Below, piece by piece: positions 4,456 to 61,015 of a stretch of 64,000 nucleotides of DNA. Location: NCBI GenBank assembly GCA_965219955.1, contig OZ244799.1:1728001-1792000 (forward strand), written 5' to 3'. A model generated the notes under the pieces. The model did no database searches, was not told where the DNA came from, and saw nothing but the letters and a program-made list of their open reading frames with translations. Within the stretch, counting starts at the first letter, position 1. Each line of letters opens with the position of its first letter. Both the position numbers and the translations under genes were made by a program. The DNA is from a bacterium. Lineage in GTDB: Bacteria > UBA8248.

Positions 4456-5458
4456 CTCGCACCTCCTCCCGCGATTTTTCAGGCTCCGCGGCGTCCGCCC
4501 CCTCCGTCGCCGCATCCCCCGGCTCCTCTTCTTTTTTCACCGAGAGGAGGTAGAGGATCGCCATGCGGCAGGCGACGCCGTATTCGACCTGCTCCAGGAT
4601 GACGGAGAACGGCCCGTCGGCCACGTCGGGGGACATCTCCACGCCCCGGTTGATGGGTCCGGGGTGCATGATGAGCAGGTCCCGCTTCGCCCCCTGGAGC
4701 TTCTTCTTGGTGATCCCGTAGGTGTTGGCGTATTCGCGCGCGCTGGGGAAGGCGCTCCCCGCGCCCCTTTCGAGCTGGATCCGGAGCGCGATGAGCACGT
4801 CCGCCCCGTCGATGGCCTCATCGAGCCGCGTCGTCACGCGCGCGCCGAGGCAGTCGACCTCGGCGGGCAGCATCGTGGAGGGGCCGCAGAAGGTGACGTT
4901 CGCGCCCAGCTTCAGGAGGCCGGCCACGTTCGAGCGCGCCACGCGGCTGTGCGCGATGTCCCCCACGACCGAGACGTTCAGGCCCTTGAACTTCTCCTTG
5001 TGCTCCCGGATGGTGTAGAGGTCGAGCAGCGCCTGCGTGGGATGCTCGTGGCAGCCGTCGCCCGCGTTCACGACGGCGCAGTCGAGCTCCCTCCCCAGAT
5101 AGGCGGGCGCGCCCGACGCCCAGTGCCGCACGACGAGCACGTCGGTGGCCATCGCCTCGATGTTCCTCGCCGTGTCGCGCAGGGTTTCCCCCTTGGCCGC
5201 CGAACTCGTGGAGACCGAGAGGTTGATGACGTCCGCCGAGAGGCGCTTGCCCGCGATCTCGAACGAGGCGCGCGTGCGCGTGCTGTTCTCGAAGAACAGG
5301 TTGACGATGGTCTTTCCCCGCAGCGTGGGCACTTTCTTGATGTCGCGCTCGTTGATCTCGCGGAACGAGTCGGTCTGATCGAGCAGGAACGTGATTTCCC
5401 CGGGCTCGAGTTCGCGGATCGAGAGCAAATCCTTCCTTCGGTATGTCTCCATGTTCAT
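4439..5458 (-). CDS. pyrB: Aspartate carbamoyltransferase catalytic subunit
   Basis: [32 protein letters not shown]. Confidence 0.97.
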
Positions 5459-5494
5459 ATCCCCCCCCTGTAACGCCCGGGCCACCGGGCATAT

Positions 5495-6016
5495 TTATCG
5501 CTTGAAAACGGCATCCTGGCCGTCGGTCTCCTCCAGATGCACCCGCACCTCCTCGGGATGGACCGCCTCGATGTTCTTCCCGACGAAATCGGCGCGGATG
5601 GGCAGTTCGCGTCCTCCCCTGTCCACCAGGATGGCGAGCCGCACCCTCCGGGGGCGGCCGAAGCCCACGAGCGCGGCCAAGGCGGCGCGCGCCGTGCGGC
5701 CCGTGTAGAGCACGTCGTCGACCAAAACGACGTCCTTGCCCTCGCACGAGAAGGGGAGGTCCGTTTTCTTGAGGCTGGTTCTCACCCCGCCCGCCTGGTT
5801 CAGGTCGTCGCGGTAGAGCGTCACGTCGAGCGCGCCCACGAGCGGATGCACGCCCACGAGAGACTGGAGTTCCCGGGCCAGCCTCTCCGCGAGAGGCACG
5901 CCCCTCGTGCGGACCCCGATGAACACCAGGTCCGACAGATCGGCCGTTCGCTCGATAATCTCATGCGAGAGGCGCCTCAGGGTGCGCCTCAGCTGCTCGG
6001 CGTCGAGTTGTTTCAT
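5495..6016 (-). CDS. pyrR: Pyrimidine operon attenuation protein / uracil PRTase
   Basis: LDVTLYRDD, VLVDDVLYTGRT, DRGGRELPIRADFVGKN. Confidence 0.96.
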   Translation of the reverse strand: MKQLDAEQLRRTLRRLSHEIIERTADLSDLVFIGVRTRGVPLAERLARELQSLVGVHPLVGALDVTLYRDDLNQAGGVRTSLKKTDLPFSCEGKDVVLVDDVLYTGRTARAALAALVGFGRPRRVRLAILVDRGGRELPIRADFVGKNIEAVHPEEVRVHLEETDGQDAVFKR

Positions 6017-6064
6017 CGTCAAAGCGAAACCCGGCCTTCGGGCGGTTGCTCGTCAAAAAGGAAC

Positions 6065-6170
6065 AAAAAAAACTCCATGCCCACAGGGCATGGAGTTCCG
6101 GGAAAAGGCGAGAGAATGGCAAGCATCCGCGTTTCCTCCTTCGCCGCCTCACGGGACGACATTAAAGGGG
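6065..6170 (-). promoter_or_regulatory. PyrR-binding attenuator leader with intrinsic terminator
   Basis: Minus strand CCTTTAA-TGTC-GTCCCGTGAGGC-GGCG-AAGG matches the PyrR binding loop consensus; followed by 12-bp hairpin 6071-6097 and a U run. Confidence 0.9.
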
Positions 6171-6267
6171 AATTTCTATGTCACCATGTCATTTCCGCCC
6201 GGCGATGCATGCAACCGGGAAGTTCCGGTAAAACTAGCAGTCTTTCCGGGAAAGAGCAAGGGCGGAC

Positions 6268-6582
6268 TCAGGAGCGCTTCAAAAAATCCATCGGCGCGCC
6301 CGAGAGGCTCTCCCTCTCATCGAGAGCGTGGGCGGACTCCTCCAGTACCTCGAAGAGGCCGGAGGCGTCTTTTTTCGACAAATTGCGCCTCGCCTCCCCC
6401 AATACGCGGATGCGCAGGGTCTTGTTCTCGAGCCTGAGCCTCAGCACATCCCCGATTTCCACCCGGGAAGAGGCTTTGGCCGTTTTTCCCTCGATTTCCA
6501 CCGCACCCGTATCCGCCATGCTTTTGGCGAGGGGACGGCGCTTGACCAGACGGCTGTAGCGCAAAAACTGGTCGAGGCGCAT
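6268..6582 (-). CDS. S4-domain RNA-binding protein (Hsp15/RqcP-like)
   Basis: MRLDQFLRYSRLVKRRPLAK...AKASSRVEIGD. Confidence 0.88.
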   Translation of the reverse strand: MRLDQFLRYSRLVKRRPLAKSMADTGAVEIEGKTAKASSRVEIGDVLRLRLENKTLRIRVLGEARRNLSKKDASGLFEVLEESAHALDERESLSGAPMDFLKRS

Positions 6583-6591
6583 TTTACGTCA

Positions 6592-8097
6592 TCATTGGGT
6601 GATTTCTTTGGGATCCGCCACGATGCTGCGCGTCTTCTGGACCTCCACCTCGAAATCGAGCCGCGCGGCCTTGTTGTCCGTTTCGAAGGACATTTTCTTC
6701 GCCCCGGCTTTCTGCTCTTCGCCGCCGCCTTTCGACTGATCCGAGAACGCCTTGATCATATCCGCAAAGCTGATTTTGCCGATATACGAGTCGGGCAGCA
6801 GGTACACGTAGCGGAACAAATAGAGATTCGCCGAAGGATCGGGATTCACGAACAGCCGGTTCCCCGCCTCGAGGGCCCCGATGACGTCTTTCCCCACAGC
6901 GGCCCCCTCGCCCACTGTCACCCTGCCCGATTTCCAGCGGGGCTTGTCCCTGTTCGAGCCGTAGGCCCACAAAACCCTGTCCCGCCCGAACAACCCCCCG
7001 CGTTGTTTGAGCTTGATGCCGACCAGCCTGAAGCTAATCTGCTCGCGAACGTCCTTGAACACGGAAGACAAGCCGCCGGGCGTAGCGACGGGGTCGTAGC
7101 TGATTTCGAGAAAAGCGGCTCTTTTGAGTTCCGTTATCCACTCGCGGCGTCTCTTGGTGAATTTTTCCTTGAAGAGTTTGTCGCGGATCCTGCCGGACAC
7201 CCTGTCGAGGGTAATCACAGTCCCCGGCTTCACCTCATCGACGTGGATGACGTGAAAGCCCACCCTCGTTCTCGTCGGCTTGCTCGTCTCACCCTTCGCC
7301 GTCGAGAAAATGAGTTGTTCGAGTTCGGGGAAAACCTCGCCTTTCTTCACGGAGCCCAAAGCGCCGCCCCGGCTTCGGGCGGGACCTTCGGAATACTTCT
7401 CGGCCAACCGGGGGAAATCAGCACCCGGCTTCGTGGCCTCCTCGTATGCGAGGTCCGCTTTTTTGCGCTGCGCTTCGATTTCCGCGGCGGAGGCGGCCTT
7501 GTCCACGGGAAAGAAAATCTGCCGCACCGTCCGGTGCTCGGCCTCACGGTAGTCATCGGAATGCGCGTCGTAATAATCCGCTATTTCCTGATCCACCACC
7601 GAGACGCGCACGCCGACTTCCATGTTCTCCACTTTTCGCGCCAGCAGCTTCTTGCGAAGCTCATCGCGGTATTTCTCCATCGTCATTCCCTGCGAATCCA
7701 AAAAGGCGCGCAGTCCGGCCGTCGTCGTCTTGTTCTGGCGAAGTATGCCCGCGACCGCGTTTTCAACCTCTTTTTCGCTGACGTTCAGTTCGAGAGCAGA
7801 GGAGCGTTTCAAGATGAGTTTGCTCTGGATCATGGCGTCGAGCGCCTCGAGTTCGAGTTCGCGAATCCGCCGGTTCAGCTGCTCTCCCCTGTAATTCCTC
7901 CTCAACTCGTCGACGCGCGGTTTCACGAATTCCTGAAGTTCCGAAAGCATGATGATGTCATCGTCAACCTTCGCGATGATTCTCTCGATCGTCACGGCGG
8001 AGGCGGCCGCCGGGGCGGTGGCCGCCGGAAGGAGCCCGCCCGCCAGGGCGAAAAGCGCAATCGCCAGAACGCAAAACCGCCTAGCCCGATACGACAT
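6592..8097 (-). CDS. SurA-like parvulin peptidyl-prolyl isomerase with C-terminal extension
   Basis: Signal peptide, ERIIAKVDDDIIMLSEL SurA N-domain, LAEKYSEG...GGALG...GFHVI rotamase domain. Confidence 0.85.
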   Translation of the reverse strand: MSYRARRFCVLAIALFALAGGLLPAATAPAAASAVTIERIIAKVDDDIIMLSELQEFVKPRVDELRRNYRGEQLNRRIRELELEALDAMIQSKLILKRSSALELNVSEKEVENAVAGILRQNKTTTAGLRAFLDSQGMTMEKYRDELRKKLLARKVENMEVGVRVSVVDQEIADYYDAHSDDYREAEHRTVRQIFFPVDKAASAAEIEAQRKKADLAYEEATKPGADFPRLAEKYSEGPARSRGGALGSVKKGEVFPELEQLIFSTAKGETSKPTRTRVGFHVIHVDEVKPGTVITLDRVSGRIRDKLFKEKFTKRRREWITELKRAAFLEISYDPVATPGGLSSVFKDVREQISFRLVGIKLKQRGGLFGRDRVLWAYGSNRDKPRWKSGRVTVGEGAAVGKDVIGALEAGNRLFVNPDPSANLYLFRYVYLLPDSYIGKISFADMIKAFSDQSKGGGEEQKAGAKKMSFETDNKAARLDFEVEVQKTRSIVADPKEITQ

Positions 8098-12624: not shown

Positions 12625-13944
12625 TTAATTCAAATACTTCTTCGTGATCATGAAATCCCGGAGCACGTTGGAAGACTTCTTGGGCAGCGCGACCTCAGCA
12701 CCGTTCAAGGATACCTGCGTTCCCGCGATGTTCCCCACGGTAAGCGCGAATTTTTCAGACGCCTTCCAATTCCTTTCCTTGCCCGCCAGCAAGAGGAGTT
12801 CTTCCGTATTTTTCGCATCGACCACGATTCGCAGCCATGTGTCTTCCGTCGCAAAAATCTTGAGACTCAGAGGGAGTTCTTCAGAAGCCGCAGGAGCCGG
12901 AGTCTCTTCCGCCGGAGCCGCCGGGGCCTGCTGTCCCTGTGGCGCCGCTTGAGCATTCGACGGGGTGTTGAGGGCTACCTTCTGCTCGGTTGAAGCGCTC
13001 GCTTGAGAGGAAGCGTCCGGCGAAGCCGGAATACCCGCCTGAGTCGCGGGGTTTTGCGTGGCAGGCGGACCCTCTCGAGACGAGGGTTCTTCCCGTGCAA
13101 CGGGAGCCTCCTCGACCTGGGCGCTCACCTGAACCGGTGGACTTTCCTGCGCCTGAGCCGGCGGGCTTTCTTGCGTCACGGATGCGTCCCGGACAGGAGG
13201 GGGCTCCTCAGCCACACGATTCTCCCGTGCGGGGGCGCTCGCTTGAACCGCAGGCTCCTCCTGGGCGGAAGAGGGTTTTTCCGCCTTCTCCGAAACCGGA
13301 GGCTCCTTCAAATTCACCGTCGAGGCGGGAGGACGACCCTCTTCGGGAGCCTTTCCCTCGACAACGTCGGTTTCTTTCCCCGCTCCGACCTCATTTTTCG
13401 CCTTCTCACTCGCTCCATTCAGCAGAGGGATCTTGTCCGCCACGGGCGCAACCGCGGTCCTGATCCTGCCGACAATCGATCCAATCGGAACAAGCTGCTC
13501 CGTTCTCCCTTTCATGAACCACAGGAGTCCGCCGCCGGCGACGAGAAAAATCAATACGAAAGCAATGGTTGCAACGGATGAGAACCGATTTACTCCGGAA
13601 ACGGGGCTGAAGCGGGTTTGGACCTCGGGCTCCAGCTCGTATGCTTCCAATGGGACTCCGCCCGCAATCTCTTGTTTATAGCTCGCGGCAACGGTCGTGC
13701 TGTCCACGCCGACCGCATCCGCAAAAGCGCGGATGAAACCCAGACCCACCGGCCCCGCAGGCAATTTATCGAAATCACCGGTTTCGATACTTTCCAGGTA
13801 ATATGTACGGATTCGCGTCTTCTCGGAGATCGAACGAAGGGGTATCTCCTTTTCCTCGCGCAAACGACGCAAGAAAGGCCCCACACCATCTTTTTCTATT
13901 TGTTCCATCAGTCTCGGGTCGAGCTCATCCATCACGCGCCCCAT
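12625..13944 (-). CDS. rodZ: RodZ-like HTH membrane protein
   Basis: N-terminal HTH (LRRLREEKEIPLRSISEKTRIRTYYLESIE), one TM segment, Pro/Ala/Glu linker, C-terminal TWLRIVVD...VGNIAG domain. Confidence 0.85.
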   Translation of the reverse strand: MGRVMDELDPRLMEQIEKDGVGPFLRRLREEKEIPLRSISEKTRIRTYYLESIETGDFDKLPAGPVGLGFIRAFADAVGVDSTTVAASYKQEIAGGVPLEAYELEPEVQTRFSPVSGVNRFSSVATIAFVLIFLVAGGGLLWFMKGRTEQLVPIGSIVGRIRTAVAPVADKIPLLNGASEKAKNEVGAGKETDVVEGKAPEEGRPPASTVNLKEPPVSEKAEKPSSAQEEPAVQASAPARENRVAEEPPPVRDASVTQESPPAQAQESPPVQVSAQVEEAPVAREEPSSREGPPATQNPATQAGIPASPDASSQASASTEQKVALNTPSNAQAAPQGQQAPAAPAEETPAPAASEELPLSLKIFATEDTWLRIVVDAKNTEELLLLAGKERNWKASEKFALTVGNIAGTQVSLNGAEVALPKKSSNVLRDFMITKKYLN

Positions 13945-14044
13945 TTCACCAAATTCAACAGAAACGACCCGAATTATGGGATCGAGTCTATTTCATAATC
14001 GGGTCGAAAGTCAATGTTTGAAAAACGGGAACCGCCTCTTTCCG

Positions 14045-14390
14045 GGGCTGTTGAAAAAGCTTCTCCGTTGGAATTGACGATTCGTTTCGCGTGCGCCCGG
14101 ATTCGAGCGTCGTTACGGAGACGGCTGATGCGGTTCGCCACGAAGCCGTCATTCCGGAATGCGCCGGCATGACGAGCGAATACCGCGCCCGTTGCAGGGG
14201 CGGTTCGCGAACCGCCCCTACGGGGGCTGTTGAAAAAGTCCTCTCAAGCGGTGGGGATAAGATGGTTTTGTAGGGACAACCCTCCGTGGTTGTCCTTTGC
14301 GGGATGGTTGCCGTCAGGACAGGCACGGAGGCCTGTCCCTACGGCGAACAATCTCGAAGGTCGGATAGGGCTTTTTCAACGACCCCCTTT
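14045..14390. repeat. Intergenic repeat cluster (GGGCTGTTGAAAAA ends, GTCATTCCGG hairpin, GTAG-REP doublets)
   Basis: Same units recur elsewhere in window. Confidence 0.8.
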
Positions 14391-14444
14391 CGGGGCGGAT
14401 ATGGCCTTTGAGTGAGGAGACAGCAGGTAATCTTTGCGAAAAAT

Positions 14445-15314
14445 TTACGAAATCATGGAGAGAATCAGGGGCGTTACGTGGCAGATGCTCGGATTCGCGG
14501 CATCCGACAGCAAGGTGTCCGCACCTTTCCCGTAGAGCAATATGGGTACGGGGTTTCCGGTGTGCGCGGAGGTTTCCATGTCCTCCACGTTGCCGTGATC
14601 GCTGCTGAGAACGAACGTATCTTCATCCGGGTCGAGCCGCCGGAGCGCGGCCTGCAGGAAGCGGTTCAAGTCCGCCAGAACTTCAGCGGCCTCCTCCACG
14701 GTTCCGCGGTGTCCGACGTGGTCGGTCTTAAAAAACTCATAGACCAGCAAATCCTTTGCGCGCGCCATATCTCCCAGGCGAGCGCCCGCCTCCCCTGCGT
14801 CCAGCGTCGCGACATCATGGCCCTGCTCGACGATAATCGCGTTCGTGTAGTCGCGGTAAACGGCCCTCCCCTCGACGAGATCCTCGAGGCGGTTCAGCCG
14901 CATTCCCGCGCTCTCGGCCATCACCGTGGTCACCGAGCGGATGCGGTTTCTGCCGCGCATGAAAAAACGGGGCGTATACGTGTTGGCGAACCCGACGGCG
15001 GCACCTCTCTCGCGGGCGCGCCTCAAGAGTCCGTTTCGGGCGATGATGCGGCGCAACTGCGTATTCGGCAGTGCCTGAATGTGCCTTCCCACCGCCTTGG
15101 GCGCGTTCACGCCCGTGAACAAGGCGGTCCCGCCCGTCGCGCTCTGGGGGATACCCTCGACGCCGAGGCAGGCGTCCGCCTCGATGAGGCGGAAACCGGC
15201 CGTCTCGTTTCCGCACAAAAGCCCCAGCGGAGGCTCCTTCACGCGGGAGAGCGGATTGCCCGGCGCAGGCGGTGCGATCCCCAGGCCGTCCACGAACACG
15301 AAAAGAACGGACAT
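14445..15314 (-). CDS. Alkaline phosphatase superfamily metalloenzyme (phosphoglycerate mutase/phosphopentomutase-like)
   Basis: FVDGLG, PQSATG, TDHVGH, SSDHGN, HTGNPVP metal-binding motifs. Confidence 0.8.
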
Positions 15315-15315
15315 G

Positions 15316-16335
15316 CTACAGCGTTCTTCCGGCGGCCTCTGCGAAAACCTTGAGTTCATCGACGAGGGCGGCGAACTTCTCGGGTTTGAGCGACTGCGGC
15401 CCGTCGCTCATCGCCCTCTCGGGTTCGGGGTGCATCTCCAGCATCAGGCCGTCCGCCCCGACGGCCACGGACGCCTTCGCCAGGGGCGCGACGAACCGCC
15501 AGGCGCCCGCCGCGTGGCTCGGGTCCACCACGACCGGCAAATGCGTCTGCTCCTTGAGCACGGGCACGGCGCTGATGTCCAGCGTGTTGCGCGTGGCCGT
15601 CTCGAAGGTGCGTATCCCCCGCTCGCACAGCACGACGTTCGGGTTCCCCTGGCTCATGATGTATTCGGCCGACATCAGGAACTCTTCGATGGTCGTGGAC
15701 ATGCCGCGCTTCAGGAAAATGGTCTTCTTCGTCTTGCCGACTTTTTTCAGCAGCGAGAAGTTCTGCACGTTGCGCGCGCCGATTTGCAGCACGTCCGCAT
15801 ACTCGCAGCACACGTCGATGTCTTCTGAATCCATGACTTCCGTCTGGATGGGAAGCCCCGTCTTCTCGCGCGCCTCGGCGAGGAGCTTCAGGCCTTCTTC
15901 CGCCATGCCCTGGAAGCTGTAAGGGGAGGTGCGCGGCTTGTAGGCGCCGCCTCTCAGGACGTGGCCGCCACCCGTTTTGACCACATCGGCGGATTCCATG
16001 ATCTGCTCCCTGCTCTCCACGGAGCACGGCCCGCCGACGATGATGATTTGATCACCCCCGATTTCCACTCCCTCGCCCATCGGCAACTGGCTGCGCTCGG
16101 GCCTTCCCTCCGCGCTCGCCAGTTTGAAGGGCTTGAGAATGGGCATCGCGCTTTCCACTCCATTCAAAGAAACAAGTGATTCCAGCATGTATTTCCCCCG
16201 TTCATCCCCGATGGCACCGATCACCGTACGCTCCACCCCTTTGATGACGTGCTCCTTGTAGCCGAGTTCATTGATCCTGCCGATGGCGTTCTGAATTTCC
16301 TCATCCGTCGCGCCCTGCTTCATCACGATAATCAA
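15316..16335 (-). CDS. aroF: 3-deoxy-7-phosphoheptulonate (DAHP) synthase, type Ibeta with N-terminal regulatory domain
   Basis: [44 protein letters not shown]; TTG start with AAGGAG RBS. Confidence 0.95.
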
Positions 16336-16378
16336 GATAAATCTCCTTTTTCCCTCTCGGAACTCTCATGTAATCATC

Positions 16379-16411
16379 AAAAAAAATCGCCGTGAGGCTC
16401 TCCCACGGCGA
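16379..16411 (-). terminator. Attenuator terminator upstream of aroF
   Basis: Minus strand TCGCCGTG-GGAGAGCCT-CACGGCGA followed by T8. Confidence 0.85.
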
Positions 16412-16465
16412 GTGTTTCTCTATTTGACCGTGGCGCCGGGCTGCCCGCCCGCCGCCGTTCGTTTT

Positions 16466-16546
16466 CTACATAACGGCGCGCGGACGGACGGGGATAAAGC
16501 CGAAAAAGCAATACCCGCCGCAATATCTTCTCATCGTCCGCATCAT
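16466..16546 (-). CDS. Putative Tyr/Phe-rich attenuation leader peptide of aroF
   Basis: MMRTMRRYCGGYCFFGFIPVRPRAVM*, AGAGG RBS, five Tyr/Phe codons within ten, directly before terminator. Confidence 0.75.
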   Translation of the reverse strand: MMRTMRRYCGGYCFFGFIPVRPRAVM

Positions 16547-16650
16547 GACCGCCTCTGGAATCTCAGGAAATTGCATTCGTATCGAAAAAGCGCCTTAAGA
16601 TAATCCCGCAAACTTACATGAGTCAACCCCTTGGACGCGGATATTTCAGA

Positions 16651-17817
16651 TTATTTCGGCCTCCGCGCCACTTCGGTGAGTCTTCGCCGATCCTTCCCCG
16701 ACGGTCTGAGCAGCCTGCCCCCCAGGACCACGTGCGTCGCCTCGAGCATCCGGTCCCCCGTGCGCCGTGACCCCATGGCGTCCTCGAATACGAACCTGCC
16801 CTCCTTCACCCGGAACACGGCGACGTCGCCCCGCGCGCCTTTCTTGAGCGTCCCCACCTCCCCCTTGAGGCCAATCCACTCGGCCGCCGTCTGCGTGCTG
16901 AGGCGCACCACCTCCGCAAGGGGGAGCCCCAGGGCCAGGAACTTGCTCATGAGGCTGGGAAAATCATACACCGGGCCGTGGATGCAGTGCGTATGGAGGT
17001 CCGTGCTCAGGTTCCCCGGCATCAGGCCCTGCGCCATGGCTTGCTCCATGATCTCGAAGCTGAAGCTCGAGCGCCCGTGCGCCACGTCGAGCAGCACGCC
17101 GGAATCCCTCGCCTCCCACACCGCGCGGCGCACCCGGCCCCGTGCGTCGAGTATGTTCTCCCGCCTGCCGTGAAAGGCGTGCGTGAGCACGTCGCCCGGA
17201 CGCAGCCGCTTCAGGATGCTCGGCAAAGAGGAAGGCGTGTCACCCACGTGCGCCATGAGGGGGACTTTCAGGAACTCCGCCGCTTCGAGCGCCGCATCCA
17301 GGGGTTTGGCGCCGCTTCGCTCCACCACGTTATCGCTCAAGCGCACCTTCATGCCGATCAGGTATTTCCGGTGCTTCTGGTAACAATCCACCGCCCTGTC
17401 GGCGCGCAGCGCGCGCATGTCGATGTTCTCGCCGAGGCCGTCTATCAGGAGCCCGCCTTCAGAGATGTTCAAGTACGCGCGCACCGTCGGGCGCGCTTTC
17501 TCCAGGAACCATTCCTGGAAACCCGGGTACGTCTGCGCGCCGGCGCTGCCCGTATCGACCGCCGTCGTGACGCCGCGCGAGAGCATGGCGGTTTCCAAAT
17601 TCACGCCGTAGTGCGTAAAGCCCTCATAAAAATGGCAGTGGAGGTCGACCAGGCCGGGGGTGACGATTTTTCCCCGCGCGTTGAGCGTCTGCCTGCCCCT
17701 CGGCTCGACGTGGGGAGCGACTCTCCGCACGCGGCCGCGAACGATCTCCACGTCCATCGTCCCCTCCAGACCCTGCGAGGGATCGACCACGTATCCGCCG
17801 CGAATGACGAGGTCCAT
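16651..17817 (-). CDS. Amidohydrolase / dihydroorotase-like metallohydrolase
   Basis: PGLVDLHCH, VDTGSAG, GMKVRLS, LTHAFHG, DVAHGRSSFSF, STDLH. Confidence 0.85.
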   Translation of the reverse strand: MDLVIRGGYVVDPSQGLEGTMDVEIVRGRVRRVAPHVEPRGRQTLNARGKIVTPGLVDLHCHFYEGFTHYGVNLETAMLSRGVTTAVDTGSAGAQTYPGFQEWFLEKARPTVRAYLNISEGGLLIDGLGENIDMRALRADRAVDCYQKHRKYLIGMKVRLSDNVVERSGAKPLDAALEAAEFLKVPLMAHVGDTPSSLPSILKRLRPGDVLTHAFHGRRENILDARGRVRRAVWEARDSGVLLDVAHGRSSFSFEIMEQAMAQGLMPGNLSTDLHTHCIHGPVYDFPSLMSKFLALGLPLAEVVRLSTQTAAEWIGLKGEVGTLKKGARGDVAVFRVKEGRFVFEDAMGSRRTGDRMLEATHVVLGGRLLRPSGKDRRRLTEVARRPK

Positions 17818-20699: not shown

Positions 20700-21308
20700 A
20701 TGAGCCAGATGATCGAAATCGTAAAACCCACCTCTTTCGTCCGCGCGGGCGACCACCCCCTGGCGGAGCGGCCCGAAGACCTGGGGGGTCTCAAAGTCGG
20801 CTTTTTCCACAACAACAAGCCCAACGCCGACGTCCTTCTCGAGCGGATCGAGGAGTTGTTCGCCCAGGAGGACGAGACGCTGCGCTTCATCCGGTGGGGA
20901 AAGCCGAACCCCACCCTGCCCGAGGATCGCATCGAGGAATTCATCGCACAGGTGGACGTCGCCGTCTGCGCGGTGGGGGACTGAGGGAGCTGCACGTCAT
21001 GGAGTATCCATGACTCGGTGGAGATGGAAAAAGCGGGCGTTCCGACGGCCACGTTCTGCTCCAGTGAATTCTCGGCCCTGGGCGCGAACGAGAGAACGGC
21101 CTTGGGGATGCCCGGCCTCCCGATAGTCGTCGTGGCGCACCCGGTGGGCGGCATCGCGCCCGACCAGGCGCGCGCCCTGGGCGACGGCGCGGCGGGAGAG
21201 GTTCGGCGCATCCTCACGGGCGATGCCGAATCGCTCAGAAAAGAATACCGGGAGCGCGAATACGTCCCGCCCCGCAAGACGGTGCGCCACAAGGCGCTCT
21301 TCGCATAG
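20700..21308 (+). CDS. UGSC-family selenoprotein (in-frame TGA at 20982-20984 read as Sec)
   Basis: ORFs 20487-20984 and 21018-21308 share a frame and join as AVGD-U-GSCTSWSIHDSVEMEKAGVPT; hairpin GTCATGGA-GTA-TCCATGAC starts 11 nt after the TGA. Confidence 0.88.
20996..21014 (+). promoter_or_regulatory. Putative bacterial SECIS hairpin
   Basis: Perfect 8-bp stem with G-containing loop, 11 nt downstream of the in-frame TGA. Confidence 0.7.
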
Positions 21309-21320
21309 GCGGGCTTCGGT

Positions 21321-22397
21321 GTGAATGACCACTCCCAGGAAAATCTCGCGTTCGAGAACGAACGCGTGAAGGTTCGCGACACGCCCGAGGCGATGGCGCG
21401 CCTGCTCGAAGCCCGGGGCTGGGGCGATGGTCTGCCCGTCGTTCCCCCCACGCCCGAGCGCGTCGCCCGGATGGTGGAGGGCGCAGGGCTCGCGCCCGAT
21501 GCGGAAATCGGCCTCATGCCCCCACGTCAGGGAGTCATCTCCACCGAGGCCCTCGCCGTGAACGCCGTGATGGCCGGCTGTCATCCGTCTTACATGCCCG
21601 TTCTGGTGGCCGCGGTCCGGGCGGTGCTGGCGCCCGAGTTCTCGCTCCACGCGATTCAGGCGACGACCCACCCGGTGGCGCCCCTCATCATCGTGAACGG
21701 CCCCATCGTCGGGGAAATCGGACTGAACGCGGAATATGGGTGCTTCGCCCCCGGAAACCGGGCGAACGCGACGATTGGCCGCGCGATGCGCCTGGCGCTC
21801 CTGAACGTGGGCGGCGCGAGCCCGGGCGTACTGGACCGCGCCACCCAAGGATCACCTGCGAAATACGCGTTCTGCATCGCCGAGAACGAGGCGGCCTCCC
21901 CCTGGGAGCCGCTGCATGTGGAGCGCGGCTTTGCGCCCGATGAGAGCGCCGTGACGCTCGTGGGCTGCGAGGGCCCCCACAACGTCAACGACCACGTGAG
22001 CCACACGGCGGAGGGCATCCTCGCCACCGCCGCCGACACGATGTCCATCATGGGGAGCAACAATTTCTACCTGCGCGGAGAACCCGTTCTCGCCTTGGGC
22101 CCCGAGCACGCGGCGACCATCGCGGGAGACGGCCTCACGAAGGCGGACGTGAAGGAGAGAATTTTCGAACTCGCCCGTAAGCCCGTGCGCCGGCTCAGGC
22201 GCGGCGCCATGTGGGGAATGCAGACCTGGGGCGAGGAAATAGCCGAACACGAAGACGACGATGATTTCGAGATCCCGCTTCTGGACGAACCGGACGATTT
22301 GCTCCTCATCGTGACGGGCGGGGCCGGCAAGCATTCGTGCTACATGCCCACCTTCGGCCCCACGCGCTCGGTGACCGGGCGAATCGATATGGTCTGA
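21321..22397 (+). CDS. Conserved protein typically paired with UGSC (seleno)proteins
   Basis: GWGDGLPVVPPTPERV, AVNAVMAGC, RANATIGRA, AENEAASPWEPLHVERGF, GGAGKHS. Confidence 0.85.
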   Translation: MNDHSQENLAFENERVKVRDTPEAMARLLEARGWGDGLPVVPPTPERVARMVEGAGLAPDAEIGLMPPRQGVISTEALAVNAVMAGCHPSYMPVLVAAVRAVLAPEFSLHAIQATTHPVAPLIIVNGPIVGEIGLNAEYGCFAPGNRANATIGRAMRLALLNVGGASPGVLDRATQGSPAKYAFCIAENEAASPWEPLHVERGFAPDESAVTLVGCEGPHNVNDHVSHTAEGILATAADTMSIMGSNNFYLRGEPVLALGPEHAATIAGDGLTKADVKERIFELARKPVRRLRRGAMWGMQTWGEEIAEHEDDDDFEIPLLDEPDDLLLIVTGGAGKHSCYMPTFGPTRSVTGRIDMV

Positions 22398-23945: not shown

Positions 23946-24338
23946 ATGGCGAAACAACAAATCAACTCCGATAAGGTAAAGCCGGTCGCCGCGTATTCGA
24001 CGGGCTGGAAGGTATCGAACGGACATCTCATCATGCTGGCGGGACAGGTGGCGGTCGACGTGGACGGCAACACCGTCGGAGGCGACGACATCAGGGGCCA
24101 GACCCGGCAGGTGTACGAGAACATCAAGTTCGCGCTGGAGGCGACGGGCGCCGGGATGGCGGACATCATCCGCCTGACCGTCTATATCACCGACCCTGCG
24201 AATGTCCCGGGGTGCATGGAGGTGCGGCAGACATATTTCAGCGAGCCGTACCCGGCGAGTACGCTCCTGGTCGTGAGCGGCCTGGCGAAACCCGAATGGC
24301 TCATCGAGATAGACGCGATCGCCTTCGTGGAAGACTAG
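23946..24338 (+). CDS. RidA/YjgF family protein
   Basis: LAGQV, QTRQVYENI, PASTLLVVSGLAKPEWLIEIDAIA. Confidence 0.92.
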   Translation: MAKQQINSDKVKPVAAYSTGWKVSNGHLIMLAGQVAVDVDGNTVGGDDIRGQTRQVYENIKFALEATGAGMADIIRLTVYITDPANVPGCMEVRQTYFSEPYPASTLLVVSGLAKPEWLIEIDAIAFVED

Positions 24339-24342
24339 AAGC

Positions 24343-25197
24343 ATGAGCAGCCGCAGGTCCATCGCCGAAACGCTCGTGCTCGTCAAGGGAGGCGGCGACC
24401 TCGCCACCGGCGTGGCGCATCGTCTGCACCGCGCGGGTTTTCCGGTCGTGATCACCGAAATCGAAAACCCCACCATGGTGAGGCGCACCGTCTCCTTCGC
24501 CGAGTGTCTGTATGCGGATGGGTGGAGAGTGGAGGGCGTGACCTCCGCCCGCGCGGCCGGCGAGACGCCCGCGGAAAAAGCAGAGAACGCGCGCGCCATT
24601 CTTGATGCCGGTTCGGTTCCGGTGATGGTGGATCCGCGCGCCGAGGTGGTCGCTCATCTTCGGCCCGCCGTCGTGGTCGATGCGATTCTCGCGAAGCGAA
24701 ACCTCGGCACGCGCATCGACGACGCGGAGGTCGTTATCGGCCTGGGGCCGGGATTCACGGCGGGCGTCGATTGCCACGCCGTGGTCGAGACCTCCCGGGG
24801 ACACGACCTGGGACGTGTGATCCTGGAGGGCGCCGCGAAGCCGAACACCGGCGTTCCGGGCCCGATCGGCGGCTACACCACCGAGCGGCTGCTGCGGGCG
24901 CCCAAAGCCGGCGTATTCACCTCCATCGCCAAAATCGGCGACGCGGTGCGCGCCGGAGAGGCCGTCGCCCGCGTGGACGACGCCGAAGTGACCTCCGCCA
25001 TCGACGGCGTTTTGCGCGGGCTCCTGAGAGACGGCATCGAGGTGAGCGCGGGCTTCAAGGTGGGCGACGTCGACCCGAGGGCCGAGCCCGCCCATTGCCA
25101 CACGATATCGGATAAATCGCGCGCCATCGGCGGCGGCGCGCTCGAGGCCATCATGATGTTCCTGTTCGGCGTTTCAGCCATGGAGTATGCGAATTGA
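24343..25197 (+). CDS. yqeB: Selenium-dependent molybdenum hydroxylase system protein YqeB
   Basis: VKGGGDLATGVAHRL, VRRTVSF, VDAILAKRNLGT, GLGPGFTAG, ETSRGHDLGR, KVGDVDPR, ISDKSRAIGGG. Confidence 0.93.
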   Translation: MSSRRSIAETLVLVKGGGDLATGVAHRLHRAGFPVVITEIENPTMVRRTVSFAECLYADGWRVEGVTSARAAGETPAEKAENARAILDAGSVPVMVDPRAEVVAHLRPAVVVDAILAKRNLGTRIDDAEVVIGLGPGFTAGVDCHAVVETSRGHDLGRVILEGAAKPNTGVPGPIGGYTTERLLRAPKAGVFTSIAKIGDAVRAGEAVARVDDAEVTSAIDGVLRGLLRDGIEVSAGFKVGDVDPRAEPAHCHTISDKSRAIGGGALEAIMMFLFGVSAMEYAN

Positions 25198-26078
25198 CTA
25201 CCGAAATATTGAGTGAAACCGTGGAAAACGGCGCCTACCGCATCGGGCGCAGCGAAATCCCCATCAACGAGACCAACGGCAACTCCTTCGTCCCCCCGGC
25301 GCAGTTCTATCTGGCGGCGGGCGACGCGCTCGAGCGAATCGCGTGGGCGGTGAGCAGCAACCTGCCCGTCCTCCTCGTGGGGGAGACCGGCGTCGGCAAG
25401 ACCCTCTCGGTGCGCCACCTCGCCCACATGACCAACAACGGCTTCCGGCGCGTGAACCTGAACGGCATGACCACGGTCGATGAGTTCGTGGGCAAGCTGA
25501 TGATCAACGAACAGGGCACCTACTGGGTGAACGGCATCCTGGTCGACGCCATGGAATCGGGCGACTGGCTGCTCATCGACGAGATCAACGCGTGCCTGCC
25601 GGAAATCGCCTTTTGCCTGCACAGCCTGCTCGACGACGACCGCATGATCGTCTTGTCCGAATACGACGGACGCATCGTCAAGCCCCACCCGAACTTCCGG
25701 CTCTTCGCCAGCATGAACCCGCACGAGGACCGCAGATACGGCGGCACCAAGCCCCTGAACGAGGCGCTTCTGGACCGCTTCCCGGTCACCGTGAAGATGA
25801 ACTACCTGCCTTTCGAGGCGGAAGTCGAGGTCATCATGCAGCAGAGCGGGAACCACGATGAGGAACTCGTCAAGCGCATGGTGCGCGTGGGCCACGACGT
25901 GCGCGAGGCCATGCAGAACGAAAAGGTGTTCTGCACGTTCAGCACCCGGCGCCTCATCGACTGGGCGCGCATGGCGGCGCAGTTCGACCCCATGGAAGCC
26001 GCCGTCTCGACCATTTTCAGCAAGGTCAACTCTTTCGACGCCAAAGTGCTCGAGGACATCGTAGACAACCACTTCTAG
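25194..26078 (+). CDS. MoxR-clade AAA+ ATPase (CbbQ/NirQ/NorQ type)
   Basis: Walker A GETGVGKT, Walker B LLIDEIN, ALLDRF, STRRL; TTG start overlaps yqeB stop. Confidence 0.9.
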   Translation: MTTEILSETVENGAYRIGRSEIPINETNGNSFVPPAQFYLAAGDALERIAWAVSSNLPVLLVGETGVGKTLSVRHLAHMTNNGFRRVNLNGMTTVDEFVGKLMINEQGTYWVNGILVDAMESGDWLLIDEINACLPEIAFCLHSLLDDDRMIVLSEYDGRIVKPHPNFRLFASMNPHEDRRYGGTKPLNEALLDRFPVTVKMNYLPFEAEVEVIMQQSGNHDEELVKRMVRVGHDVREAMQNEKVFCTFSTRRLIDWARMAAQFDPMEAAVSTIFSKVNSFDAKVLEDIVDNHF

Positions 26079-26092
26079 CCGGGAGATGAGGC

Positions 26093-27865
26093 ATGGAACG
26101 CCGACGCGCCCGTCTCGAAGCGCTCGCGCAGGTGACCGCGCACGATTACGACCTCGCCCTGAACTTCGGCCCCAAGGCGAAGAACGGCGAAGACGCCATT
26201 CACGTCGAGGACCCCGAACAGACCCTGGCGCGCCTGGGCGGCGGACTCAACGACGAGCACGTCTTGAGATTCCAGAAGGGCATGACGCTCATCGAGGTGG
26301 CCCACAAAATCCACGGCACGTTCCCCTGGGCGGGCCGCGCCGCGCTCGCGAACCGCGAGAGGCCGGGCTTGTTTCACATCTGGCACACGCTCGAGGACGC
26401 GCGGTGCGAAAACCGCCTCGCGGAATCGCTGCCCGGCACCAAGAAGAATTTCCGCGCCTTCATCCTCCCGGCCATCGAGGCGGCCCAGCGCAACCAGATG
26501 AGCGGGCAACTCCCCCTGTTTCTCCAGATCCAGTGGGGAATCTACCTCGCCGGGATCGGGCAGACGCCCGGCGTCCCCTCCTCCCGGCCCGGGGATTTGC
26601 CCGCGGCCTGGTTCGATACCGCCGTCGTTCAGATTTTTCACAGGCTCATCCCGCTGGTAGACCGCGCCTGCGCCGCCGATGACCCCAAAACCGCCTTCGA
26701 TTGCGCCAACGAGATTTATGACGCCATCCAGCGGTATCTCACCGAAGATCAACTCTCCCGGATGAGCGACGATCAGGATTTATCGGAAATTCCCGAGGAA
26801 ATTCTGCAGAAGATCGAGAGCCAGAACCTGGAGGGCGACGATGACGAAGCGCTCGAGATGCTCCACCCCGAGGCGGCGGAGGAAATCGACGAGGAAGACG
26901 TGGGCGAGCAGGTCGAACTCAGCCCCGAGGAACTCGCGGCGCTCGGGCACTGGGCCGCGCCCTGGTTCGAACTCGAAGGGAACAAGAAGGAAATCCACCC
27001 CACCGCCGAGCACCCTGATGAGCGCACCATCGTGTTGCCGCCCGAGGGCAAGGCCGAGGAATACGCGGCGGTCATCGACAACGCGGGCAGCCACATCAAG
27101 GTGCTGGTGTGGAAGCTCATGCAGATCATCCAGGAGAGAACCTATACCCGGTTCAGCGGCTCGCACCGTTCGGGCAAGCTGAACCTCCCGAAGCTGTGGA
27201 AGCAGCGGCTGGGGAAATTCCATCTCTTCCACCGGAAAGAAGAGCCCGAGAAGCTCGACGTGTGCTTCACGCTGCTCGTGGACGAGAGCGGCAGCATGAA
27301 CCGCGAGTCGAAGTACATGGCCGCCAGGGAAGCGACCATATTCTTCGCCGAGGCGCTCGACCGCCTCGACGTGCCCTTCGAGGTCATCGGCTATTCCACC
27401 GAGAGTTCGGAAGCCGCCATGGCGGCGGCCCTCGGCCACATCCCCGCGTTCAAGTTCCGGCACATCCGGCACTCGCCGCTCCAGCACCGCATCTACAAGG
27501 GTTTCGAGGATCATTTCGCCCAGGTCAAGAACAGGCTCGTCAACATCTACCCGCGCTTCAACAACTGGGACGAGGAACACCTGCTCTTCGCCTACCGCAG
27601 GCTCATCCAGCGGCCCGAGGAGGAGAAAATCATCATCATCACCTCCGACGGCCAGCCCAACGGGGACGCGACCCACCTCGTGAACACGGTGAACCGGCTC
27701 CAGAAGCTCGGGGTGCGCGTCATCGGCGTCGGCGTGGTGGACCCCTTCGTGGAGCAGATCTACCCCAACCACATCGTGGTGCAGGACCTCTCCCAGCTTT
27801 CCACCGAACTCGTGAACATCCTGAGGCGCGAATTGCTCGGCGGCCTGGAGAGCCGCAATTGGTAG
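26093..27865 (+). CDS. VWA-domain partner protein (CbbO/NorD/CobT-like)
   Basis: LEDARCEN N-terminal motif, acidic linker, MIDAS LLVDESGSM and TSDGQP. Confidence 0.88.
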   Translation: MERRRARLEALAQVTAHDYDLALNFGPKAKNGEDAIHVEDPEQTLARLGGGLNDEHVLRFQKGMTLIEVAHKIHGTFPWAGRAALANRERPGLFHIWHTLEDARCENRLAESLPGTKKNFRAFILPAIEAAQRNQMSGQLPLFLQIQWGIYLAGIGQTPGVPSSRPGDLPAAWFDTAVVQIFHRLIPLVDRACAADDPKTAFDCANEIYDAIQRYLTEDQLSRMSDDQDLSEIPEEILQKIESQNLEGDDDEALEMLHPEAAEEIDEEDVGEQVELSPEELAALGHWAAPWFELEGNKKEIHPTAEHPDERTIVLPPEGKAEEYAAVIDNAGSHIKVLVWKLMQIIQERTYTRFSGSHRSGKLNLPKLWKQRLGKFHLFHRKEEPEKLDVCFTLLVDESGSMNRESKYMAAREATIFFAEALDRLDVPFEVIGYSTESSEAAMAAALGHIPAFKFRHIRHSPLQHRIYKGFEDHFAQVKNRLVNIYPRFNNWDEEHLLFAYRRLIQRPEEEKIIIITSDGQPNGDATHLVNTVNRLQKLGVRVIGVGVVDPFVEQIYPNHIVVQDLSQLSTELVNILRRELLGGLESRNW

Positions 27866-28686
27866 CGGAAGACGACGTCGTTCGCTCCCTCGGGGTCGCG
27901 CCGGGCCAGAGCGTCGCGGCGGTCGGCGGAGGCGGAAAGACGAGCCTGCTGACGGCCATCGCCAGGCAGTTTCATGCGCAAAGCGGAAAACCGGCGATTC
28001 TCACGACGACGACGAAGATTTTCGCGCCGCTCCCCGAGGAAGGGCTCGGGCTCGCCCTGGGCGACATCGATACGCTCTCCAAAAACCTCCGCCCCTACAC
28101 GGGCGCGTGCGGCGTCTCGTGGTTCGCCCGCAGCCGCGAGGGAAAAGCGCCGGTTCCGGGCCGGGAGAGCGAGCGGCGCATGAAGCTGAGTGGATTTGCG
28201 CCCTCAGAAATCGAACGCCTGAAGCTCGCCGACGCCCTCACGCTCATCGAGGCGGACGGCGCGAGGAGACTGCCCATCAAGGCGCCGGGGCCTGATGAAC
28301 CCGTATTGCCCGAAGGCCTCGACGCCGTATTGGGCGTCGTGGGACTCGACGCGCTGGGCGCGCCATTGAGGGAGTCGCACGTTTTTCGCCCCGAGGCGCT
28401 CGCTCGAATCTGCGGCCTGGGGTCCGGTGAGGAGATAACGGCCCAAGCCGTCGGGAGATTGTGCGCGCATCCTGATGGTCTTTTTCACAAGGCGGAGGCC
28501 GGCGCGCGCAAATGGATTATCTTGAACAAGGCCGATCTGGAAACCTCGCTGGAAAAACTCGAAAAAACGGCCTATACTATATGGGAGTTGGCCGGAAAGC
28601 CTCATGGTCCGGCGGACGGCATCCTCTTCACATCTTGTATGAACAACGAATGTGAAGTATTCATGCGGATCGCATCGGATACGTAG
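27859..28686 (+). CDS. yqeC: Selenium cofactor biosynthesis protein YqeC
   Basis: 3' part of ORF 27109-28686: VGGGGKTS, LTTTTKI, IEADGARRLPIKAP, LNKAD; TTG start overlapping the VWA stop. Confidence 0.9.
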   Translation: MVAEDDVVRSLGVAPGQSVAAVGGGGKTSLLTAIARQFHAQSGKPAILTTTTKIFAPLPEEGLGLALGDIDTLSKNLRPYTGACGVSWFARSREGKAPVPGRESERRMKLSGFAPSEIERLKLADALTLIEADGARRLPIKAPGPDEPVLPEGLDAVLGVVGLDALGAPLRESHVFRPEALARICGLGSGEEITAQAVGRLCAHPDGLFHKAEAGARKWIILNKADLETSLEKLEKTAYTIWELAGKPHGPADGILFTSCMNNECEVFMRIASDT

Positions 28687-28717
28687 CGATCATCACTTCA
28701 CGTAGGCGGAGCAAGCA

Positions 28718-29863
28718 ATGAGCAAGGACGTTTTCAGGGAAATGGCGAAGCTCAAGGGAGACGGCCAGAGCGGCGCGCTCGCCACCGTCGTGGCCCGCAA
28801 GGGGTCCGCGCCCATGAGCGGCGATGCGAAGATGCTCGTGCGTGAGGACGGCAGCACGGAAGGTACCGTCGGCGGCGGTTGTCTCGAGGCCGAGGTGTGG
28901 GAAACCGCGATGAGCGTCCTGGAAACGGGCGAACCCGAAAAGCTCCGCTTCGACCTCACCCAGCAGGAAGCCGAAGACAGCGGCCACATCTGCGGCGGCG
29001 TGGTGGAGATACTCGTGGAGCCGTTCCAGGCGTTTCAGGCGGATTTGCTCGATGAGATCAACCGCATCAGGAACCATGGCGGCAGCGCGGCGCTGGCGAC
29101 CATCGTTCAGCCGGGCGATCTCGACGTCCCGGCGCCGGAAGCAAGAAAAATGCTGTTCAGGCGCGACGGCAGCGCCTTGGGCGAGATTCCCAACTATTCA
29201 ACGGAGATATGGGCGGAGAGCACCCAAATCATCCGCAACGGCAGCCCCACGCTCCTGCAGTTCAACACGGACGCCGCACGGGCAGGCGGGAAAAGATCCA
29301 CGCTCGAAGAAGCTACGGAAATTTTCGTCGAACCCATATCCGGCCAGCCCCTCGTCTATATCTTCGGCGGCGGGCACGTGTCGTTCTGCGTCGCGCAGGC
29401 GGCCTATCTCGCTGGCTTCAGGGTCTCGATCGTCGAGGACAGGCCCTCGTTCGCCAACAAGGAGCGCTTCCCGATGGCGGAGTCGTTCTTCGTCGGCGAA
29501 TTCCCCGATATTTTCGAGAAAATCCCGGTTGACGAGTCCGACTACCTGGCCATCATCACGCGGGGCCATTCGAACGACGAGGTCGTCCTCGAATGGGCGA
29601 TGGAGACGCCCGCGCGCTATATCGGGATGATCGGCTCCAAGAGCAAGGTGCTGCTCACCTATCGCCACCTCCAGGACAAGGGCTACGACAGAGGCGAGCT
29701 CATCGAGCGCGTCCACGCGCCCATAGGTCTCGACATCGGCGCCGATACGCCGGGCGAGATAGGCGTCGCCATCGTCGCCGAACTCATCAGGCATCGCCGT
29801 CAGGGCGAGGCGCAGAGTGAGGGCACGGGCAGCAAACGGGTGCAACTCAGAAGAAAATCTTAA
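28718..29863 (+). CDS. xdhC: XdhC/CoxI family molybdenum hydroxylase accessory protein
   Basis: GSAP, GTVGGGCLE, ICGG, FGGGHVS, YIGMIGS, HAPIGLDIGADTPGEI. Confidence 0.92.
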   Translation: MSKDVFREMAKLKGDGQSGALATVVARKGSAPMSGDAKMLVREDGSTEGTVGGGCLEAEVWETAMSVLETGEPEKLRFDLTQQEAEDSGHICGGVVEILVEPFQAFQADLLDEINRIRNHGGSAALATIVQPGDLDVPAPEARKMLFRRDGSALGEIPNYSTEIWAESTQIIRNGSPTLLQFNTDAARAGGKRSTLEEATEIFVEPISGQPLVYIFGGGHVSFCVAQAAYLAGFRVSIVEDRPSFANKERFPMAESFFVGEFPDIFEKIPVDESDYLAIITRGHSNDEVVLEWAMETPARYIGMIGSKSKVLLTYRHLQDKGYDRGELIERVHAPIGLDIGADTPGEIGVAIVAELIRHRRQGEAQSEGTGSKRVQLRRKS

Positions 29864-60930: not shown

Positions 60931-61015
60931 GTGTAGGTCGATGGGGTGGACGCCTCCTTCCGGCGGATTAGAATGTGGCGAGACGACGTCACACACCGCC
61001 CGGAAGGAGACGACC

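Follow-up and report, generated by a model that had tools for sequence, protein, structure and literature searches.

We analysed a window of 64,000 nucleotides (positions 1,728,001 to 1,792,000 of contig OZ244799.1, forward strand; "the window" always means this whole stretch) from a bacterium of the lineage UBA8248, and found a pair of genes, encoding an AAA+ ATPase and a partner protein with a VWA/MIDAS domain, embedded between the selenium trait markers yqeB and yqeC. Our reading is that the two genes encode an AAA+ ring of the MoxR class and an adaptor of the VWA/MIDAS type, which probably act on molybdenum hydroxylases of the xanthine dehydrogenase (XDH) family together with YqeB, YqeC and XdhC, the ligand likely being selenium. 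Participation of the pair in molybdenum hydroxylase maturation is very likely, and a selenium-specific role is plausible. What the sequences show directly is the domain make-up of the two proteins, the integrity of their ATPase and MIDAS motifs, the conservation of two gene contexts, and joint presence or absence across genomes. The genes are as follows.

23946-24338, plus strand: ridA, Rid/YjgF family, which opens the row; Ribonuc_L-PSP 93 bits
24343-25197, plus strand: yqeB, marker of selenium-dependent molybdenum cofactor maturation; TIGR03309 367.7 bits, equivalog cut-off 220
25194-26078, plus strand: AAA+ ATPase (AAA_5 + CbbQ_C), the motor; AAA_5 100.5 bits, CbbQ_C 40.5 bits
26093-27865, plus strand: VWA/MIDAS adaptor of 590 residues; CobT_C 68 bits, VWA 29.6 bits
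27859-28686, plus strand: yqeC, P-loop protein and marker of the selenium cofactor trait; TIGR03172 162.7 bits, equivalog cut-off 73.05
28718-29863, plus strand: xdhC, molybdenum cofactor chaperone of the XdhC/CoxI family; XdhC_CoxI 92.8 bits, XdhC_C 126.4 bits
29945-30700: comF-like gene, downstream of xdhC

The order ridA-yqeB-AAA-VWA-yqeC-xdhC had been proposed in an original prediction made from the DNA letters, and all six genes indeed lie head to tail on the plus strand at the positions above, their identities being supported by Pfam/TIGR profile scores. The two overlaps that it described can be read in the sequence: at 25194-25197 (yqeB/AAA) the TTG start of the ATPase gene at 25194 overlaps the yqeB stop TGA (25195-25197) in the sequence TTGA, and at 27859-27865 (VWA/yqeC) the TTG start of yqeC at 27859 overlaps the VWA stop TAG (27863-27865), where both TTG starts are those suggested by homologues of equal length. 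When compared with NF045664, xdhC scored 309 bits, under the cut-off of 350. There was no molybdenum hydroxylase among the scanned open reading frames (ORFs) of the window.

When we examined close relatives of this locus (ATPase 75-99% identical), yqeB and the ATPase gene were adjacent in 33 of 33, the VWA gene came next in 32 (the remaining contig stops before it), and yqeC and xdhC followed in all 27 loci that continue, six contigs stopping earlier. Since the yqeB-AAA and yqeC-xdhC linkages held in 33/33 and 27/27 cases, the gene order is not a matter of chance. The four-base yqeB/AAA overlap is retained in nearly all of these loci; ridA is found upstream of yqeB in 27 of the 33 and is thus not a fixed member of the row. 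The near-identical loci belong to metagenome-assembled genomes (MAGs) that bear the labels Nitrospinota, Tectomicrobia or just 'bacterium', and several of these MAGs are sponge-associated bins. Further away, a Nitrospinaceae locus (L046) shows the same order as the window, and three loci with an ATPase 68-70% identical (L047, L048 and L060) carry yqeB-AAA-VWA without yqeC or xdhC behind; at L047, genes for a flavin adenine dinucleotide (FAD) subunit and a large subunit lie about 3 kb downstream. Of 51 genomes from the window's phylum, 47 contain the pair, and each of these has a full-length yqeB alongside. Two fragmented MAGs of this phylum (G169 and G171) have a yqeB cut at a contig end, with hydroxylases and XdhC present. 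Two genomes of one genus (G165 and G166; 2.1 Mb, 95% complete, in 2 and 6 contigs) yielded neither the pair nor yqeB, XdhC_CoxI or MoCoBD_1.

A second context was found in 11 Chloroflexota loci (ATPase 63-67% and VWA protein 31-36% identical), which carry the pair with no yqeB within 8 kb. In nine of them four hydroxylase genes and a gene of the metallo-beta-lactamase fold directly precede the pair; as to the other two, the contig of L049 begins inside the last gene of that upstream row and L053 has only 1.1 kb of upstream sequence. The hydroxylase consists of an FAD subunit, a 2Fe-2S subunit and a split large subunit, and the split is real, as a TAA or TAG stop is followed by GGAGG, resembling a ribosome-binding site, and then by ATG. 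The best solved match of the first half of this large subunit is 3HRD_A (E 3.9e-67), the large molybdopterin subunit of nicotinate dehydrogenase, reportedly a selenium enzyme (as the title of a 1982 work by Dilworth, cited in PMC10331938, indicates); the next is 4-hydroxybenzoyl-CoA reductase (E 4e-46). The 3HRD_A enzyme is the NdhF/NdhS/NdhL/NdhM enzyme of Eubacterium barkeri, with two molybdenum-binding subunits, according to the available part of PMC10331938. In three Chloroflexota loci the pair is followed at a distance of about 8 kb by an XdhC gene, and the whole cluster may be one long catabolic operon. At L050, L055, L057 and L058 (about 13900-16800) we also observed a large transketolase-like gene and then XdhC, some 5-8 kb 3' of the pair on the same strand.

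Even though yqeB is not next to the pair in these Chloroflexota, it was found above the cut-off elsewhere in nine of the 10 pair-bearing genomes searched. The five that were tested for both yqeC and a TGA-containing selD had both (5/5 each); yqeC adjoins yqeB in four, and in the fifth both genes lie at contig ends. As the original prediction required, close homologues of the pair do co-occur with the selenium trait markers, yqeB accompanying them in 47 of 47 genomes of the window's phylum and in 9 of 10 Chloroflexota.

Seven RNA-library runs contained part of the stretch, and four of these, from two studies and designated 'sponge metagenome', were compared with it. Their RNA contigs are 90-99% alike to the gene row, and every gene junction was bridged: ridA/yqeB by X1 record 1; yqeB/AAA by X1 record 2 and X7 record 26; AAA/VWA by X3 record 21, X2 record 11 and X7 record 27; VWA/yqeC by X2 record 13 and X3 record 24; and yqeC/xdhC by X1 record 7. 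These bridging contigs are consistent with co-transcription, short of proof of one transcript.

The Walker motifs of the ATPase are intact. The Walker A sequence GETGVGKT (G63-E-T-G-V-G-K-T70) and D129-E130 of Walker B are invariant among 23 homologues. The original prediction had assigned the ATPase to the CbbQ/NorQ type, and this class is borne out by its AAA_5 and CbbQ_C matches and by the scores of 80 and 79 bits that it obtained against the solved NorQ and CbbQ chains. Higher scores were obtained with CobS (99.5 bits) and, at the top, with the AAA modules of midasin (35-44% identical, six stretches summing to 347 bits), and a lower one with MoxR proper (2R44, 47 bits). In the adaptor, the MIDAS residues D397, S399, S401 and D519 (DxSxS ... 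D) are invariant in 15 homologues, and the VWA part scored 52 bits against the solved CobT chain. In the AlphaFold2 model of the adaptor (mean predicted local distance difference test score 73.7), residues 1-226 make up a helical N-domain and residues 228-296 a linker that is acidic and disordered; a long helix (321-353) and the VWA domain (385-583) come after it, the MIDAS-type VWA region extending over about 314-586. A fold search with residues 314-586 placed Rea1-MIDAS first (Z 21.8, root-mean-square deviation 2.5, 210 residues aligned), followed by MDN1-MIDAS (Z 20.8), the NorD VWA domain (Z 17.5) and generic VWA domains (Z 16 or less), and Foldseek ranked them in the same order; in both searches all matches came from the VWA domain and none was informative on the N-domain. 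A complex prediction with XdhC, YqeB and adaptor residues 297-590 gave the adaptor a score of 0.00 against a mark of 0.32, which counts neither way.

No NCBIfam model exists for either protein, and the models nearest to them scored far under their cut-offs, with 88.1 against 558.55 for TIGR01650 (CobS) on the ATPase and 59 against 759.05 for TIGR01651 (CobT) on the adaptor. The clade of the ATPase has many members: a word-indexed search recovered 490 proteins at E <= 0.001 among 5259 candidates, the best 120 being all at least 64% identical, and in a library clustered at 50% identity the entire clade is one representative (P0032). When representatives were searched with the ATPase, 149 of the 150 matches listed were giant multi-AAA midasin-like proteins of 1982-7557 residues, and the search did not help to place the ATPase relative to CobS, NorQ or CbbQ. 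The pair is a tight clade of its own whose nearest relatives are CobS/CobT, NorQ and midasin by sequence and Rea1-MIDAS and NorD by fold. Among genome contigs, the nearest ATPase relatives outside the clade were one in an Aquaspirillum MAG (52% identical) and giant multi-AAA proteins, and the relatives in Omnitrophota and Planctomycetota (L062, L063, L064, L067 and L068; match at about 8001) are midasin-like frames of 3949-5612 residues.

The genome to which the window belongs is a single contig of 4.28 Mb, 94.25% complete. The original prediction had made its proposal depend on selD and molybdenum hydroxylases being in the same genome, and both are present: selD scored 332.7 bits and has one in-frame TGA, and there are 10 large subunits of the XDH family (MoCoBD_1 matches), most of them without small-subunit or accessory genes of their own nearby. 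One copy each was found of yqeB, the ATPase gene, the VWA gene and xdhC, the ATPase being the sole CbbQ_C match in the genome and xdhC the sole XdhC_CoxI match. A second yqeC (TIGR03172 136.7 bits) is located on the minus strand at C1:4099982-4100935 (L085:13283-14236), where it adjoins an M20 peptidase gene about 6 kb from a hydroxylase large subunit, and within this genome that hydroxylase is a possible client of the selenium type. Two hydroxylases have an AIR-synthase-like gene in their vicinity; these weak selD-like matches were also considered as selenium links and were discarded, one being ThiL (286.9 bits, cut-off 184) and the other scoring under all cut-offs.

The same genome contains a separate cluster at C1:1211314-1214998 (minus strand; L092:7315-10999) made up of coxM (FAD), coxS (2Fe-2S), a CoxD-type AAA gene and a VWA_CoxE gene (C1:1211314-1212579, 204 bits), with no large subunit beside it. 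Since most large subunits are orphans, the small subunits and the CoxD/CoxE-type motor of this cluster may be shared. The window's ATPase is 25% identical (E 8e-4), and its VWA protein 22% identical, to the corresponding protein of the cluster; because the cluster exists separately, the pair in the window is a second, different system.

The closest functional precedent is the CoxD/CoxE/CoxF system. In Oligotropha carboxidovorans CoxD is needed for the sulfuration of the molybdenum site in folded apo-carbon monoxide dehydrogenase, an ATP-dependent step in which it works with the VWA protein CoxE and the XdhC-family protein CoxF (PMC4240915, available in part). Both systems combine an AAA+ protein, a VWA/MIDAS protein and an XdhC-family protein in a comparable AAA-VWA-XdhC-type order, and in the Cox system it is an XDH-family molybdenum site that is finished. 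However, our pair belongs to a different protein family, as its low identity to the genome's own CoxD/CoxE-type pair indicates, and its adaptor has no VWA_CoxE (PF05762) Pfam match at E <= 0.001; further differences are the partners, here YqeB and YqeC, the lack of a copper step and the absence of structural genes next to the pair. With CobS/CobT it shares a two-gene layout of an AAA_5 ring protein and an adaptor that has its ring-binding part at the N-terminus and its VWA domain at the C-terminus, and these are its closest single-domain relatives in sequence (CobS 99.5 bits, CobT VWA 52 bits), but its context is one of molybdenum enzymes rather than cobalamin genes and the genome lacks CobN. 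In CobST, according to two preprints (bioRxiv 10.64898/2026.07.21.739949 and 10.64898/2026.10.09.757910), the adaptor is seated on the ring by its N-domain; binding of ATP brings the VWA domain to the pore, and the client binds on the opposite side. The combination of an AAA_5 + CbbQ_C ATPase with a NorD-like VWA partner is also that of NorQ/NorD. In midasin, unlike here, ring and MIDAS form one giant chain, and in our pair the ring unit and the MIDAS domain are encoded by separate genes. The NorQ/NorD system is said to insert non-haem iron into nitric oxide reductase.

As in the YqeB/YqeC selenium-dependent set of Haft and Self (2008; PMC2276186, available in part), yqeB and yqeC are here at equivalog level and the genome has selD and XDH-family enzymes, but in the sets described there yqeB adjoins yqeC directly and a motor pair does not intervene. 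The terms MoxR, AAA, Willebrand and ATPase are not mentioned in the main-text portions available of PMC2276186, PMC2432076, PMC5322559 and PMC11448449, to which supplements are additional. In the literature searched, YqeB and MoxR appear together only in a 2010 review, which treats YqeB and CoxD separately; no work was found with YqeB and Willebrand together, and both XdhC with VWA and AAA+, and MoxR with von Willebrand and molybdenum hydroxylase, led only to the CoxD/E/F paper. The suspicion in the original prediction that a link between YqeB/YqeC and an AAA+/VWA pair had not been described is in line with this, as no paper on it was found, subscription-only papers being outside the search. 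The pair is very likely an AAA+/MIDAS maturation machine akin to the known ones, and it is undescribed in the literature searched.

To our knowledge, only YqeB has genetic support in the insertion of labile selenium, and we know of no mechanism for this step. The deletion phenotype of yqeB resembles that of selD mutants, and the labile selenium route into molybdenum hydroxylases is the least understood form of selenium incorporation (Johnstone and Self 2024; PMC11448449, available in part). By analogy with CobS-CobT, NorQ-NorD, Rea1 and CoxD/E/F, we propose the following scheme, in which ring formation, client, preference for selenium and sequence of events are all inferred. The ATPase would form a hexamer, on which the N-terminal part of the adaptor would dock with one adaptor per hexamer, and the MIDAS site would grip an acidic residue on the client. 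ATP hydrolysis would then remodel either the folded apo-hydroxylase or a cofactor bound to XdhC/YqeB, and once the active site is open the cofactor could be put in place together with its labile terminal ligand. This ligand would most likely be selenium, supplied as SelD-made selenophosphate via YqeB/YqeC; we consider selenium likelier because of the company of yqeB and yqeC, the resemblance of the Chloroflexota client to a selenium enzyme, and the existence in the genome of another pair, CoxD/E, for the route that uses sulfur. The original prediction of an ATP-driven chaperone dedicated to loading a selenium-containing cofactor thus holds in part: the link to hydroxylases is found in two unrelated contexts, while selenium and sulfur are not separated by these data, given that the operon holds the sole XdhC.

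The link to YqeB is itself one-sided. Among 151 Chloroflexota genomes drawn evenly across the phylum, 42 have yqeB above the cut-off, a background of 28% (the sample includes the unpublished genomes G043 and G150, both with yqeB, and without them the count is 40 of 149). The 9 of 10 found among pair-bearing Chloroflexota exceeds this background and should be taken as roughly one event, because the ten genomes are relatives. Among the best 80 yqeB loci on contigs of species representatives, yqeC lies within 6 kb in 54 and xdhC in 39, and the pair stands beside yqeB in six, all of them records already among the first loci. Since most genomes with yqeB lack the pair, it is accessory to the trait and does not belong to its core. 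In short, the pair travels with the YqeB/YqeC trait in all fully testable genomes except one that is incomplete, and the trait mostly occurs without the pair. The tie to YqeB/YqeC suggested originally therefore stands as co-occurrence of close homologues but not as a general part of the trait (0 of 74 outside yqeB loci; 1 of 151 genomes).

Two deltaproteobacterial loci, both among these 74, bear on why a motor should be found at this place. In a Syntrophales MAG (L163, about 2537-7268) and in a deltaproteobacterial MAG (L166, 5893-9949), a CoxD/CoxE-type pair lies beside yqeB. At L166, yqeB (TIGR03309 341 bits) is directly followed by a CoxD-type AAA gene (AAA_5 48.5 bits; MadB-like with 277 bits, under the model cut-off), then by an apparently frameshifted VWA_CoxE protein (181 bits), and then by XdhC. 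This looks like a non-orthologous displacement in the slot between yqeB and xdhC, and the finding of two unrelated motor pairs in the same slot lends support to the view that there is a functional demand for a motor with its adaptor between YqeB and XdhC. We also built a tree of the ATPase from the window, 28 of 48 loci (near-identical ones were omitted) and six outgroup rows. The nine Chloroflexota rows linked to a hydroxylase group in a single clade (100/100), which in the outgroup-rooted tree is placed next to L047, L048 and L060, inside the yqeB-linked rows. The yqeB-linked state may thus be the older one, with a single move to a hydroxylase operon, a reading that we regard as tentative because support at the deeper forks is only 86-90 and the outgroups sit on long branches.

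It could be argued that the pair is a general maturation motor of the XDH family, for cofactor insertion or for sulfuration as in CoxD, without any special tie to selenium, and that it lies near yqeB and yqeC as maturation genes are pooled. We consider this unlikely, although it has to be taken seriously: the operon has the genome's only XdhC, most of the 10 large subunits are without accessory genes of their own, the pair was lost along with all hydroxylases and not with yqeB alone, and the CoxD precedent concerns sulfur. However, the genome already has a CoxD/CoxE-type pair beside coxM/coxS, all fully testable genomes of the clade have yqeB bar the incomplete one, and the candidate client in Chloroflexota resembles the selenium-dependent nicotinate dehydrogenase most closely. 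A client outside the molybdenum enzymes altogether, such as those of NorQ/NorD and CbbQ/CbbO, or a general role as stress chaperone, with the gene order a frozen accident of one lineage, would agree with the AAA_5 + CbbQ_C and MIDAS-VWA architecture, which is common to both of those systems. This is very improbable in view of the two conserved contexts in two phyla, both of which indicate molybdenum hydroxylases, of the joint absence of pair and hydroxylases, and of the start and stop codons that overlap those of yqeB and yqeC. In addition, no nitric oxide reductase gene (norCB) and no RuBisCO gene, the partner of CbbQ/CbbO, was seen among the window ORFs scanned, which was the extent of the search for norB and for RuBisCO. 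That the pair is a divergent CobS/CobT of the aerobic cobaltochelatase, placed in this operon incidentally, is extremely improbable; no named family scores better than CobS and CobT, and among single-domain relatives of solved structure these two are the closest in sequence, but the scores are far under the equivalog cut-offs given above, CobN/Mg-chelatase H (PF02514) has 0 matches in the one-contig genome at its 94.25% completeness, and both conserved contexts consist of molybdenum-enzyme genes.

Several points weigh against our own reading of a maturation pair for selenium-type hydroxylases. Its selenium specificity is drawn solely from the company of yqeB and yqeC, and the operon's XdhC, as the genome's only one, belongs to a family that serves sulfur-type enzymes elsewhere. 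The pair was absent within 6 kb in the other 74 of the best 80 yqeB loci, all outside the window's lineage, and its clade was found in one of the 151 sampled Chloroflexota genomes (the centre genome, to which one weak relative of 158 bits may be added); the rarity of the pair among yqeB genomes means that the YqeB/YqeC trait works without it. Because the genomes of a phylum are related to one another, the counts do not stand for separate events and represent at most two or three independent associations. One of the 10 pair-bearing Chloroflexota genomes (G159, incomplete) gave no yqeB. We tried to identify a client in the window's genome by orthology to the Chloroflexota enzyme, and found no clear orthologue, the best identities between the split large subunit and the 10 large subunits being 32-41%. 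The RNA contigs are assemblies from relatives, and carry-over of DNA is possible. Finally, the support for the role is comparative throughout, and all carriers are uncultured.

A bolder version of our reading, which we hold as doubtful but conceivable, is that the pair is a split midasin-like helper of a 'selenium insertase', opening the folded apo-hydroxylase so that YqeB/YqeC could place selenium from selenophosphate on the molybdenum. The insertion of labile chalcogens with the help of a motor would then be recurrent, given the CoxD/CoxE-type pair in Deltaproteobacteria, and perhaps such help is needed where the ligand is installed or kept in oxygen-exposed cells.

A search with Rfam over the window found no molybdenum cofactor riboswitch or other RNA element near the operon, and its only match was a PyrR binding site at 6063-6172 (minus strand; RF00515, 55.7 bits, gathering score 54), located upstream of minus-strand genes for aspartate carbamoyltransferase and carbamoyl-phosphate synthase. 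Between 20000 and 32000, five promoter-like sites were seen where 2.3 were expected, and 10 terminator-like sites where 13.2 were expected, none of them informative. Upstream of the operon lies a gene for a selenoprotein of the UGSC family (20700-21308, plus strand), in which the TGA at 20982-20984 falls in the motif GD-U-GSC and which scored 159.9 bits with PF24696 when the TGA was read through. It is followed by orfA (21321-22397, plus strand), which encodes 358 residues and has 14 paralogues in the genome but no Pfam or NCBIfam match. Further downstream we observed a ring-opening amidohydrolase of the AtzD/TrzD family (barbiturase/cyanuric acid; 50755-51858, plus strand, 491 bits) near three transposase genes of the DDE_Tnp_1_4, DDE_Tnp_1 and IS110 types (52363-53793 and 54083-55432, minus strand; 60863-62041, plus strand).

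For the step that installs labile selenium (or sulfur), these results offer a candidate motor and adaptor genetically tied to YqeB, YqeC and XdhC, and the four-subunit nicotinate-dehydrogenase-like enzyme of the Chloroflexota provides a defined candidate client. The enzymes finished by AAA+/MIDAS machines now include carbon monoxide dehydrogenase, nitric oxide reductase, RuBisCO and cobaltochelatase; if our reading is true, selenium-type molybdenum hydroxylases would join them.

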